Source: Escherichia phage vB_EcoP-101114UKE3
Sequence record: NC_070982.1
Direction: 5' to 3' (one strand)
DNA: 64,000 nt
Position 1 is the stretch's first letter, and every line of letters begins with the position of its first letter. Position numbers and translations under genes: made by a program. This document shows, piece by piece, positions 1-3,660 of the stretch. The notes beneath the pieces are model-generated. The model was not told the origin of the DNA. It did no database searches and saw only the letters and a program-made list of their open reading frames with translations.

Positions 1-59
1 GCCTTTCATCCTTCCTTAACATGAGTAGAAGAAATACGGGTGGGATATTACTGGTTAGA

Positions 60-125
60 TATACATGGGTAAATAATGCATGTGTAATATCAATGGGTAG
101 GGTATTTATGGGTAGGGATACCACT
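60..125. repeat. Cluster of short direct repeats (ATGGGT and GGTAG units) in the non-coding leader
   Basis: ATGGGT at 65-70, 93-98 and 108-113 and several GGTAG copies within about 65 bp; no ORF. Confidence 0.4.
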
Positions 126-265
126 GGTAGCAGGTAGGGCAAGGCTTAGAGCTTAAAGGCTGATTGATTTCCTAAAGGCAATTGCATTGGTAATAACCCT
201 TTTTTAAATGAGGACTCCCCCTTTTTAGGAAACGCGCTCGGAGAGGCTAGGTCCATCCGGTCAAA

Positions 266-290
266 TTGAAATTTTAAACTGTTATATATA
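266..290 (+). promoter_or_regulatory. Candidate host-type promoter with extended -10 (TGTTATATA)
   Basis: TG-n-TATATA at 280-288, about 20 nt upstream of the small ORF at 309; -35 is poor. Confidence 0.3.
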
Positions 291-308
291 AGCATAAGGA
301 ATAACTTA

Positions 309-473
309 ATGTGGAAATTGAAGATGATTATTCGTCAGATCAAATGTCAACATGAATACTACCCGATACGAATATCAAGAGGTGATGAACGATTACACGC
401 TTATTACAAGAGTACATGGAGATGTGCAGACTGTGGTAAGGTGAGGAATAGTAAATGGGTGGATAGGCCTTAA
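309..473 (+). CDS. Small hypothetical protein (54 aa) with C-x-H and C-x2-C motifs, zinc-ribbon-like
   Basis: ATG at 309 with AAGGA 8 nt upstream; open to TAA at 471-473; below the ORF-track size cutoff. Confidence 0.3.
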   Translation: MWKLKMIIRQIKCQHEYYPIRISRGDERLHAYYKSTWRCADCGKVRNSKWVDRP

Positions 474-600
474 CATGACATGGCCTTTATGGGTATGCCT
501 TAATGTGGGGTAGCCTTTATGAAGTCCCCTTTACTTCAGCGTACATGGGTTTATACATGGGTGGGCCTTTAGATGAGTACGCCTTTATGGGTTGATCACT
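466..600. repeat. Array of about 7 degenerate 14-16 bp direct repeats (core CCTTTATGGGT)
   Basis: Units begin with CCTT(T)A and contain ATG(G/T)GG; ATGGGT recurs near 454, 490, 545, 557 and 587. Confidence 0.45.
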
Positions 601-624
601 CTCGTTTATCAGAGGAGAACAAAT

Positions 625-873
625 ATGTTTCTAGACTTTTTATCAGAGGTACTTCCCTACTTCCGCACTGAGAAATGTGCATTTGTATTTGATGAAGGGG
701 AGGAGTCAATGACTTGTTTGGGTAGATTAGTAGACCTAGACGATGATGAAGATTTTGATGCTACGATGGACATTAGTTCATTGGGCTGGTTGTACATGAG
801 ATGCTTTGTAAGTTACAAGGCTGAAACGTTTAAAGATTATCGCTATAGCGCTGAAGGAGAGAATGATGAATAA
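625..873 (+). CDS. Hypothetical acidic protein (82 aa)
   Basis: ATG at 625 preceded by AGAGGAG; ORF-track frame 592..873 trimmed to the first RBS-supported ATG. Confidence 0.5.
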   Translation: MFLDFLSEVLPYFRTEKCAFVFDEGEESMTCLGRLVDLDDDEDFDATMDISSLGWLYMRCFVSYKAETFKDYRYSAEGENDE

Positions 874-1530: not shown

Positions 1531-1557
1531 GCCTCCTCTCGTGGGAGGCTTTTTGTT
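1531..1557 (+). terminator. Rho-independent terminator
   Basis: GCCTCC / GGAGGC stem with 7-nt loop followed by TTTTTGTT. Confidence 0.5.
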
Positions 1558-1573
1558 ATAATGATAATGTAGA
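1554..1573 (+). promoter_or_regulatory. Candidate promoter: TGTTATAAT followed by TAATGTAGA
   Basis: Extended -10-like TGTTATAAT at 1554-1562 and a near-copy of the recurring TAATGTATA element at 1565-1573, 12 nt upstream of the ATG at 1585. Confidence 0.35.
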
Positions 1574-1584
1574 AGGAGTATAAG

Positions 1585-2052
1585 ATGTTTGGAGAAAAAG
1601 GAGAACTCACGCCTGCACAGGTAGCTGAGATTACAGGAAGACTGCCCGGAGTAACGGAAGAACTTGAATCCAAGGGCATGGAACCAAGCACAGGGAAGTT
1701 CACTAAAGGTAATAAATTTGGACGTCCCAAAGGTAGTAGAGGTAAATTGACACAGCTCATGCTCGATCGTGTTGCTGCTAGTCATCTGTCTCCCGATGAA
1801 GTGTTGATTCAGATTTATGAAGATCCAAATATTCCACCCGATCTTAGATTCAAGGCTGCAAGTAAAGTCGCTGATCTGGTATATCCTAAGGCAGCTTCTG
1901 TTGAGGTTAAGATTGAGGAAGAGAATGTAATCAATGAAGAATCACTGAACGCACAGATTCGAGACTTCTTGACTGGTGCACTGAAAGTGGATGTGCTACC
2001 TCCAGAGGACTCTGAGGACGCTGAAAAGGAGGAGGAAGCGGACGAGAGTTAA
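1585..2052 (+). CDS. Putative terminase small subunit (155 aa)
   Basis: Directly upstream of the large terminase; basic segment KGNKFGRPKGSRGK and acidic C-terminus; RBS GAAGGAG; assigned by position. Confidence 0.4.
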   Translation: MFGEKGELTPAQVAEITGRLPGVTEELESKGMEPSTGKFTKGNKFGRPKGSRGKLTQLMLDRVAASHLSPDEVLIQIYEDPNIPPDLRFKAASKVADLVYPKAASVEVKIEEENVINEESLNAQIRDFLTGALKVDVLPPEDSEDAEKEEEADES

Positions 2053-2118: not shown

Positions 2119-3660
2119 ATGTCGTTAGATAAAGAAATCTATGAAGCTCTAACTGGAGACAAGTTGAGTATAGAGGAAAAGAAAGCTTTGCTCAATATGT
2201 TAAAAGAAAGGGACCAGTGGAGAAAATATAACAAGATGTTGGCTTTTAAAGCTTACGACTTTCAGAAGAAATTCTATGCAGCAGGGTTGAAGCATCGCTT
2301 TCGATTCCTGTGCGCAGCTAACCGTGTTGGTAAATCTTACAGCGAGGCATACGAGTTTGCTTGTCATGTCACAGGTCGCTATCCAACTTGGTGGACAGGT
2401 TACAGATTTAATCGACCTATATTGGCTTGGGCAGTAGGGATTACAGGGGACTCTACAAGAAAGGTATTGCAAAAGGAGTTGTTTGGAACACCTATCGGAA
2501 AGGATATGAATCTAATAGGAACAGGTGTTATTCCTCGTGATGCTATCGTATTGGACACGATAGAACGAGATGGGAACAAATTACAGATTGTACAAATTAA
2601 GCATCAAAACGCGAGAGGCGAGTTTGACGGTTTAAGTACATTAGAGTTCCGTTCTACCCAACAGGGTGAACATACATTGATGGGTGCTACAGTTGATTAT
2701 ATTTGGCTGGACGAAGAAGATCCATATGAATCTATGGCAATCTTCTCTCAGTGCGTAACACGTACACTTACAACTAAAGGTTTAGTTACTATTACAGCTA
2801 CACCAGAGAACGGTTTAACAGAGCTGGTGGATAAGTTTATGAAAGGTGAAGGAGATGAGAACACAGGTTCTCTGTATTTCCAGAATGCTTCTTGGTGGGA
2901 TGCTCATGTAGATTTAGGTGGACATATCACTGACCAAGATATTAAAGACATGACTGAAGGTATTCCAACATGGCAGTTAGAGATGCGTTCAAAAGGTATG
3001 CCGTTGCTTGGTTCTGGTTTGATTTATGATGTATCAGATGACATGATTAAGTGTGATCCCTTTGAGATACCTGATACGTGGAAACGTGTTTGTGCTATTG
3101 ATATTGGTATCGATCACCCGACAGCCGCTGTTTGGACAGCATATGATGCTAACACTGATACGATTTATGTTTATGACTGCTATAAAGAAGGTGGGTTTAC
3201 TCCGGTGTACCATGCACCAGCTATTAATGGTCGTGGTCAGTGGATTCCAGTTATTCTTCCTCACGATGCCGATAATATTGAGAAGGGAAGTGGTTCGTCT
3301 GTTGCTCAATTCTATAAGAATGCAGGGGTTAATGTACAGAGTGAGACCTTCTACAACAAGATTGGAATGGATGGTAAGAAGAACTTCTTTGTAGAGCCGG
3401 GAATTACTGATATTCGTGAACGTATGATGTCAGGTCGTTTTAAAATCTTTAACATTGCTTCGTGTGCTAAACTCTTTGAAGAGAAAGCTCGCTATCACCG
3501 TAAGGTTGGCAAGATTGTTAAGGAACATGATGACTTGATGGATGCTATGCGATATTCAGCTTGTTCTGTAACACATCGTGGACGTAGTAAGCATGATGCT
3601 AGTTATGGTAGTTCATCGCTTTATCAAGACAATATTAACAGATGGAATCAGACCTACTAA
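2119..3660 (+). CDS. Terminase large subunit
   Basis: ATG at 2119 with GGAGG RBS (the ORF-track start at 2107 is TTG); Walker A-like RVGKS and Walker B-like IWLDEED; typical size and position. Confidence 0.8.
   Translation: MSLDKEIYEALTGDKLSIEEKKALLNMLKERDQWRKYNKMLAFKAYDFQKKFYAAGLKHRFRFLCAANRVGKSYSEAYEFACHVTGRYPTWWTGYRFNRPILAWAVGITGDSTRKVLQKELFGTPIGKDMNLIGTGVIPRDAIVLDTIERDGNKLQIVQIKHQNARGEFDGLSTLEFRSTQQGEHTLMGATVDYIWLDEEDPYESMAIFSQCVTRTLTTKGLVTITATPENGLTELVDKFMKGEGDENTGSLYFQNASWWDAHVDLGGHITDQDIKDMTEGIPTWQLEMRSKGMPLLGSGLIYDVSDDMIKCDPFEIPDTWKRVCAIDIGIDHPTAAVWTAYDANTDTIYVYDCYKEGGFTPVYHAPAINGRGQWIPVILPHDADNIEKGSGSSVAQFYKNAGVNVQSETFYNKIGMDGKKNFFVEPGITDIRERMMSGRFKIFNIASCAKLFEEKARYHRKVGKIVKEHDDLMDAMRYSACSVTHRGRSKHDASYGSSSLYQDNINRWNQTY

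Follow-up and report, generated by a model that had tools for sequence, protein, structure and literature searches.

We describe here an array of short direct repeats near the left end of the genome of Escherichia phage vB_EcoP-101114UKE3 (NC_070982.1; the whole stretch analysed, 64,000 nucleotides long, is hereafter referred to as the window). The array comprises seven copies of a bipartite 14-mer and is situated between two small early genes (genes 1 and 2), inward of the left direct terminal repeat (DTR) and upstream of the genes for a TerS-like protein, a candidate small terminase subunit, and for the large terminase subunit (TerL) (Table 1). It is very probably a set of protein-binding sites that acts in cis and is linked to the genome end.

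Over its first 3 kb, the window is 100% identical to Escherichia phage vB_EcoP-101114BS3 and 97-98% identical to SU7, NC-B, MLP3 and IME267, all of them Gordonclarkvirinae, that is, phiEco32-like podoviruses of the C3 morphotype. Window position 1 is the physical left genome end, and several records with determined ends begin one base earlier. When aligned with the window, phiEco32, SU10, Paul, 4E8 and NC-B share the left start AGCCTTTC, which corresponds to window base 1 plus the preceding A, and the last 249 bp of NC-B match window 1-248. It is because of this shared start and this right-end match that we place the physical left end at the start of the window and the DTR at 1-248. A first-pass annotation of the window had proposed that terminal redundancy be sought in the full genome, and the DTR, repeated at the right end of NC-B, is that redundancy. 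The same annotation had considered the array itself as a possible genome terminus, which does not agree with the ends as located: the left end is at window position 1 and the array lies 212 bp inside the inner DTR boundary, although the terminus is nearby.

Table 1 Features at the left end of the window (positions of the window)
Feature	Position	Strand	Basis or remark
Left DTR	1-248 (right limit approximate)	+	Window base 1 is DTR base 2; shared end ...GGCT in alignment
GGGT(A)/TACAYGGG-type motif cluster in DTR	36-140	+	ACGGGTGGG at 36, TATACATGGGTA at 60-71, ATGGGTAGGG at 93 and 108, GGTAG repeats
Two inverted array cores in DTR	154-160 and 173-179	-	Read TAAAGGC on + strand
Probable sigma-70 early promoter of left-end operon	about 266-292	+	TTGAAA ... 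TGtTATATAtaag; conserved in alignment; promoter annotated at homologous place in 4E8
Early gene 1, 54 amino acids (aa), Cys/His pairs (zinc-ribbon-like)	309-473	+	Matches phrog_7696 (unknown function), E 1e-11
Array block 1, five abutting units	460-473, 476-489, 490-503, 506-519, 520-533	+	Exact 14-mer matches, logo, conservation
Conserved 24-bp central element CTTCAGCGTACATGGGTTTATACA	534-557	+	TACAYGGG at 542-549, second copy starting at 554 (554-561)
Array block 2, two units and trailing TGGGT half-site	558-592 (units 558-571, 574-587)	+	14-mer matches
TTTATCAGAGGAG ribosome-binding region and gene 2 ATG	605-627	+	Sequence reading, repeat search
Early gene 2, 82 aa, unknown function	625-873	+	Matches phrog_12698
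Gene 3, 218 aa	863-1519	+	PHROG 12176, labelled 'ABC transporter'
Intrinsic terminator-like hairpin ending early left operon	1531-1549	+	Terminator annotated at same place in 4E8 and Paul
Phage-sigma (gp36-type) late promoter element TAATGTAGA	1565-1573	+	Motif scan
TerS-like protein, 155 aa	1585-2052	+	Profile comparison
TerL	2119-3660	+	Pfam Terminase_6N and Terminase_6C; phrog_2

Anatomy and conservation of the array

The repeat unit was defined from a logo anchored on the CCTTWA core and built from 91 distinct units of 20 phages. It is a bipartite 14-mer, TGR-N4-SCCTTWA, in which TG and CCTT..A are near-invariant (frequencies of 0.91 for T at -8 and 0.93 for G at -7), whereas the N4 positions and the bases between units carry no information. 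Seven matches, all on the + strand, begin at 460, 476, 490, 506, 520, 558 and 574 (spacings of 16, 14, 16, 14, 38 and 16 nt), the first of them overlapping the last codons and the stop codon of gene 1. For statistics, we assembled a unit genome of 75,692 bp from the window and an 11.7-kb missing segment taken from a rotated record. On its two strands, the 14-mer is matched eight times, seven of them within 128 bp and the eighth at 69,308. In first-order Markov simulations, a genome contains 1.16 matches on average and 5 at most, and other 150-bp segments of the genome hold at most 2-3 cores. The array is thus real, unique in the genome and beyond chance. The shorter string GCCTTWA has 20 sites on both strands of the 64-kb window, six of which lie on the + strand at 467-587. 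Relatives keep the element between the two blocks of units as CAGCGTACAYGGGTT.

The first-pass annotation had reported degenerate direct repeats at 466-600, and repeats are indeed found there, as super-units of about 30 nt and as the seven same-strand 14-mers; our repeat search groups three super-units of about 30-35 nt, at 460, 490 and 558. Its count of eight ATGGGT copies in the first 600 bp is reproduced exactly (+ strand, at 65, 93, 108, 455, 489, 545, 557 and 587). The ATG(G/T)GG motif that it assigned to the unit is present, but it is mainly the 5' TGR half of the next unit, because the units abut. That the region is non-coding stands inasmuch as a 30-aa open reading frame (ORF) at 503-595 is not conserved, but does not extend to unit 1, which overlaps the end of gene 1 and its stop codon. 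Tandem Repeats Finder reports nothing at 466-600, because the units are too degenerate outside the core. Beyond the terminal clusters, ATGGGT is also about 2-fold over-represented genome-wide (54 copies against 24 expected).

The array was compared among 20 phages of the genera Kuravirus, Suseptimavirus and Nieuwekanaalvirus, with gene 2 as the anchor. All 20 genomes have kept it, as 5-7 clustered same-strand cores upstream of the gene-2 homologue, and it persists where the gene-2 proteins drop to 55-60% identity. Changes between phages are indels of whole units (16 or 30 nt), and in some phages small ORFs are inserted in or beside the array: in phiEco32 the inserted genes 2-3 split it into blocks 182 bp apart, an extra ORF precedes it in 4E8, ECBP2 and KBNP1711, and one follows it in NJ01 and O18-011. 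In PAS59 and EK010, the core CCCTTTA is fused directly to the gene 2 ribosome-binding site (RBS) element. The array region is an insertion hot spot for tiny ORFs, each flanked by a core and a TCAGAGGAG-type RBS (locus L007, from phiEco32, 489-744; locus L001, from 4E8, 587-679; also L016, L017, L019 and L021). A scan of IMG/VR for three cores at fixed spacing returned 39 loci, with bipartite arrays in only three Kuravirus-like contigs.

What is conserved is the DNA. The units stand in differing reading frames, and the 30-aa ORF is intact in 3 of the 17 phages checked (the window phage, 4E8 and SU7) and truncated or absent in the other 14. The RNA of the array is no more stable in its fold than shuffled RNA (z = +1.09, with 172 of 200 shuffles folding equally well), and an Rfam scan of 1-2200 gave no match besides a sub-threshold one elsewhere. 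A strict sigma-70 scan finds no promoter inside the array, and the phage-sigma promoter motif TAATGTANA is not in it, the nearest copy being at 1565. Taken together, the invariant bipartite core against variable spacers, the single orientation, the retention across three genera with diverging flanks, the unit-wise indels and the lack of a coding or RNA signal lend good, though indirect, support to the first-pass suggestion of protein-binding repeats. The array is not mentioned in the papers on SU10, SU7, YF01, Privateer and 7-11; a mention in the primary phiEco32 papers (Savalia 2008, Pavlova 2012) is possible. Arrays of short repeats flanking direct terminal repeats are already known as a class, and the array is a further example of this class.

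Genome ends, terminase and known systems

Several motifs connect the array with the genome ends. Of the five TACAYGGG copies in the genome, three belong to the + strand, one in the DTR (62) and two in the array (542 and 554). An 11-mer, TATACATGGGT, is identical at 60-70 (DTR) and 552-562 (array), and TATACA.GGG is invariant across all 7 aligned DTRs. Clusters of the GGGT(A) type are found in three places only: the DTR, the array and the region 330-470 bp before the right-end DTR. Ten phages have conserved the right-end cluster of GGGTA/ACGGGKA motifs (locus L006, 1620-1720; genome 75,265-75,360), which is situated 120-220 bp upstream of a strong leftward sigma-70 early promoter (TTGACA-16-TATAGT, L006 1502-1475).

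Pieces of the core itself also occur at the ends. The start of the DTR, AGCCTTT, equals the heptamer of the unit 4 core, and in 8 of 10 phages SCCTTAA recurs 17-31 bp outside the left cut. Within the DTR, core-like pieces are found as GCCTTTC at 1-7, as CCTTAA at 14-19 and as inverted TAAAGGC at 154 and 173. However, the full 14-mer is absent from the DTR and from the cut sites, and a scan of both strands of the genome shows no 14-mer array at the right end. The resemblance between cut sites and core was noticed post hoc, and because it involves the core and not the full 14-mer we count it as suggestive only. Both DTR boundaries fall at one short sequence, with the left cut at ...CT^AGCCTTTC and the right boundary at ...GGCT^AG(G/C)C; CT^AGCC-like sites are thus directly repeated at the DTR boundaries and may be a terminase nicking motif. 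This was read at window 1 and 248/249, in loci L001, L002, L007, L008 and L014 and at the right-end junctions of L005, L006 and L009-L020.

The DTR has been established experimentally as 193 bp for phiEco32, YF01 and Paul (PMC9965538, PMC4281155). Relative to the 193-bp DTR of phiEco32, SU10 and Paul, those of the window phage and NC-B carry an insertion of about 56 bp, and one of the inverted cores (161-174 region) sits in a segment missing from the shorter repeats. The extra sequence, at window positions of about 76-131 and 161-174, consists of additional ATGGGTAGGG repeats and one inverted TAAAGGC. Among annotated relatives, DTR length ranges from 193 to 275 bp. The DTR also holds the CCCTTTTTTA...CCCCCTTTTTA repeat described for SU10.

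The TerS-like protein is similar to the C-terminal half of PaP3 TerS (hhalign E 3.8e-5, probability 71%), and its orthologue in YF01 has been assigned as TerS by profile comparison (PMC9965538). A phmmer search of it against PDB sequences gave no meaningful match. It contains GRPKGSRGK at residues 46-54 (window 1720-1746), is extended at its N-terminus in a lineage-specific way and has a sub-threshold Pfam DUF5681 match. GRPKGSRGK is close to the eukaryotic AT-hook core and is conserved in the SE131, YP1 and PJNS034 homologues; each array unit has a short TTTA or TTAA tract, which such an AT-hook-like segment could contact. A core of about 50% identity, in which GRPKGSR(G/N)K is included, is common to the TerS-like proteins of the different lineages, whereas their N-termini differ. 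Among Gordonclarkvirinae, the N-terminal segment (ELTPAQVAEITGRLPGV) hardly varies, and neither does the array motif; with low confidence, we model this segment as helix-turn-helix-like.

More distant relatives, with TerL identities of 44-61%, have different same-strand arrays in noncoding DNA upstream of their TerS-like genes. Because the background of our k-mer cluster screen is high (4 of 30 coding 2-kb blocks reach five copies of a 6-mer), these arrays were re-tested with shuffles. In PJNS034 (TerL 59% identical), TGGCATG occurs five times in 128 bp on one strand, in pairs spaced by 14 or 16 bp (locus L047, 2696-2823); over 8.4 kb, six matches are observed against 0.97 expected from shuffles. 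This array ends 2 bp before the start of a gene whose product is 47% identical to the TerS-like protein of the window. In Proteus phage YP1, ten copies of ACTATG, all on the same strand, occupy 418 bp upstream of the TerS-like gene (L048, 1981-2398), and SE131 has a weaker set of three CCATCWAT repeats (L046, 395-460). In a metagenomic relative (L032, 1752-1830), six 14-bp tandem units, ACCGCGACAAATCG, lie 2 kb upstream of TerL. Compared with the order in PJNS034, genes 2-3 and the terminator/promoter pair appear to be interposed between the array and terS in Kuravirus. An array similar in kind is present in an unrelated virus, the 114-kb IMG/VR contig 3300009873_000003 (L090, 870-1095), where about 17 tandem units of 13-15 bp with AGCCTTTA or ACCCTTTAA cores lie within about 1 kb of the locus end and adjoin a gene for a P-loop (FtsK/HerA-like) ATPase.

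The closest analogue among known systems is the left end of T7. In the T7 sequence, CCTAAAG occurs three times in the first 60 bp of the 160-bp terminal repeat and then, straight after the repeat, forms a 13-copy same-strand array at 175-356 with a spacing of 12-14 bp; a second, G-rich repeat family occupies the rest of the repeat, and further CCTAAAG copies precede the right repeat. Shared by the two phages are a direct terminal repeat of 160-250 bp, an array of 7-13 same-strand copies spaced 12-16 bp apart in unique DNA inside the left repeat, and a second motif family, rich in G, within the repeat itself. A short motif close to where the repeat begins and some copies before the right repeat may be further likenesses. 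The motifs themselves are unrelated, CCTAAAG in T7 against the bipartite TGR-N4-SCCTTWA here. The T7 array begins about 15 bp after the repeat, whereas 212 bp with a promoter and a 54-aa gene intervene here, where the first unit also extends over a stop codon; at the right end, the cluster here consists of GGGT(A)-type motifs and not of the core motif. The hosts of the two arrays differ as well, T7 belonging to the Autographiviridae, with their own RNA polymerase, and Gordonclarkvirinae using the host polymerase with a phage sigma factor. The T7 arrays were reportedly named SRL and SRR by Dunn and Studier in 1983; to our knowledge, their function has never been established.

Other likenesses are to recognition sites of terminases. 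In lambda, cosB lies within about 170 bp of the nick sites and comprises three gpNu1 sites of mixed orientation (R3-R2-R1) and an IHF site, in a system that forms cohesive ends. The candidate sites here would likewise be several, on the genome side of the terminase cut and upstream of terS-terL, and the array-terS-terL order of PJNS034 resembles cosB-Nu1-A; however, the sites described here number seven, share one strand and are 460 bp away from the left cut, and the blunt direct repeats at the ends have to be duplicated. Packaging (pac) sites can also be built of repeated short elements, such as the hexamers of P1 pac or SPP1 pacL and pacR, where the small terminase binds clusters near the first cut. 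If the array units are recognition sites, they would share with these the clustering of short repeated elements. P1 and SPP1 package by headful, with imprecise ends and elements that flank the cut, whereas the phage described here has precise ends and an array set apart from both cuts. PMC7672466 refers to SPP1 and P22.

What the array may do

We tentatively favour, at somewhat under even odds, the reading that the array is a cis element for genome-end recognition and packaging, probably acting through the TerS-like protein. This reading is preferred because of the position in unique DNA adjacent to the DTR, the motif shared with the DTR, the T7-like layout and the lineage-specific arrays beside TerS genes; from these we infer protein binding to the array, TerS as the binder and packaging or end processing as the process. 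The seven head-to-tail sites, 14-16 bp apart and in unique DNA 212-340 bp inside the left DTR, would be bound by a sequence-specific phage protein, and the array would show the packaging machinery where, on replicative concatemers, the left genome end lies. The TerS-like protein, as an oligomer, would first bind both the array and the related TACAYGGG elements found in array and DTR, and would then place the large terminase for cutting at the DTR boundaries, both at CT^AG(C/G). Acting in this way, the array would be the counterpart of cosB beside cosN in lambda and of the CCTAAAG arrays around the T7 terminal repeat. Being in unique DNA, the array would let the machinery distinguish the left copy of the repeat from the right one. 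Since phiEco32-like phages are without a phage RNA polymerase, the polymerase-coupled route of T7 would not be usable by them. A more specific form of this proposal, which we hold to be possible but doubtful, is that the array and the TACAYGGG elements together are the cis signal for processing of concatemer junctions into blunt direct-repeat ends, with an oligomeric TerS, bearing a lineage-specific reader at its N-terminus, docked on 5-7 phased 14-bp sites and with motif and TerS N-terminus co-evolving between genera. The motifs that would co-evolve in this way are TGR-N4-SCCTTWA in Gordonclarkvirinae, TGGCATG in PJNS034 and ACTATG in the Proteus phages.

The first-pass annotation had described the array as lying about 1 kb upstream of the packaging genes. 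As a statement of position this is correct, since the TerS-like ORF starts at 1585, but it does not carry over to regulation: two ORFs lie between, and a terminator and a phage-sigma late promoter intervene. A role of the array in the late promoter is argued against by the same arrangement, the two being 1 kb apart with the terminator between them. With respect to the terminase genes, the array of the window phage has the TerS-like gene 1 kb downstream, and its PJNS034 analogue directly abuts its TerS-like gene. That none of the 20 genomes examined is without an array is compatible with a requirement in cis, though it is not proof of one.

Several points weigh against a packaging role. The nearer DTR boundary is 212 bp away from the array and the left cut 460 bp away, a greater distance than that between cosB and cosN, and the cut sites have core-like fragments only, without full bipartite units. 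The number of units varies from 5 to 7 and the phiEco32 array is split by small-ORF insertion, so a fixed stoichiometry with a TerS ring would not be required. The TerS assignment depends on weak profile similarity, and a single-sequence AlphaFold model of the protein is too poor to be of help (pLDDT 47). Finally, in plasmid-packaging assays by Chung and Hinkle the left repeats of T7 were reportedly not needed, and on that account the closest analogue of the array comes without a proven packaging role.

The alternative that fares best, although we consider it unlikely, is an operator or roadblock array, by which a phage or host regulator bound between genes 1 and 2 would switch off or adjust genes 2-3, in transcription or in translation, over the course of infection. 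The array is indeed within the transcription unit that runs from the probable promoter at about 266-292 to the terminator at 1531-1549, and it abuts the ribosome-binding region of gene 2, to which a core is fused in PAS59 and EK010; the analogous array of PJNS034 ends 2 bp before a start codon, and GGGT(A) clusters lie upstream of inward-facing early promoters at both genome ends. Seven tandem same-strand sites would nevertheless be unusual for an operator, which would also leave unexplained the sharing of TACAYGGG with the DTR and the T7-like architecture. PJNS034, which is without genes 2-3, still has an array. Nor is there a candidate regulator. The known phiEco32 switch protein, gp79, acts on RNA polymerase and not on DNA (PMC8948821).

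It is improbable that the units are origin iterons, to which a phage initiator would bind, opening nearby DNA, possibly with activation by transcription from the early promoter. Like the iterons of lambdoid and plasmid origins, they are tandem direct repeats of one orientation conserved as DNA, and they lie downstream of an early promoter, as in transcription-activated origins. In these phages, some two thirds of the genes are without an assigned function (PMC9965538), and an initiator could hide among them. However, the spacing of 14-16 bp differs from the typical value of about 20-22 bp, and the usual companions of iterons, repeats that the first-pass annotation had suggested, are missing: no AT-rich unwinding region adjoins (GC fraction 0.38-0.47 in and after the array, the nearest AT-rich stretch being the promoter 130 bp upstream), and no DnaA box (TTWTNCACA) occurs within 11 kb. 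No initiator gene is recognisable next to the array, the neighbours encoding the 54-aa Cys/His protein and an 82-aa protein without a family assignment. These phages are moreover thought to replicate in a T7-like manner, without iterons (PMC4281155, PMC9965538).

There is a still slighter chance that the array is a recombination substrate or scar without binding function, in which junctions of stop codon, core, RBS and ATG result from repeated gain and loss of tiny early ORFs. The hot spot of small-ORF insertion, with its flanking core and TCAGAGGAG-type RBS, is what this would predict, and the unit-wise indels show active slippage or recombination. Neutral scars would decay, however, whereas in three genera TGR and SCCTTWA have stayed nearly invariant beside variable spacers, no phage compared has fewer than five units, and gene junctions elsewhere in the genome essentially lack the 14-mer. 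That the region is an RNA element or a small peptide gene (a structured leader, a small RNA or the 30-aa ORF) is very improbable, since its transcription within the early operon and the annotation of the ORF in 101114BS3 and 4E8 are outweighed by the unremarkable fold, the lack of an Rfam match, the poor conservation of the ORF and the differing frames of the units.

Except in T7 and T3, the choice of cut sites and the duplication of the repeat are poorly understood for phages whose terminal repeats are short and exact. A compact, conserved and easily mutable array of 130 bp would offer a concrete handle on the formation of DTR ends in phages without a T7-type RNA polymerase, and it might also illuminate the equally unexplained arrays of T7. 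If it is merely an operator, its interest would be local. In either case, the 14-mer array and the AGCCTTTC start are landmarks by which Kuravirus assemblies can be oriented and their DTRs restored, which is useful because many deposited records are arbitrarily rotated.

Neighbouring genes and minor observations

The strict sigma-70 consensus scan does not call the probable early promoter ahead of gene 1; in SU10, sigma-70 promoters have been placed ahead of CDS 1-3 (PMC4281155). Gene 1 has no significant Pfam match. Gene 3 is without a Pfam domain or transporter features, and its 'ABC transporter' label, also found in many GenBank records, is probably a propagated misannotation. For the late promoter element, the consensus tAATGTAtA has been described upstream of phiEco32 gene 6 (PMC8948821, PMC4281155).

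The rotated GenBank record MZ234015.1 is 75,747 bp long, compared with 75,692 bp for the reconstructed genome, which suggests a redundancy of about 55 bp in the record; this is comparable to the doubtful '53-bp DTR' reported for SU7. Between the TerS-like gene and TerL, a sub-threshold Rfam match to Termite-leu at 2057-2146 (22 bits against a gathering threshold of 51, E 0.09) lies over a terminator-like hairpin and is almost certainly due to chance. The string TTTATCAGAGG occurs three times, at 605-615 (in the gene 2 RBS region), 639-649 and 958-968, the third copy being inside a small hairpin at 954-970 that was flagged as terminator-like. In SE131 and PJNS034, related YCTTWTCAG(T/A)G strings stand ahead of promoter-like TGTAAA or TGTATA elements.

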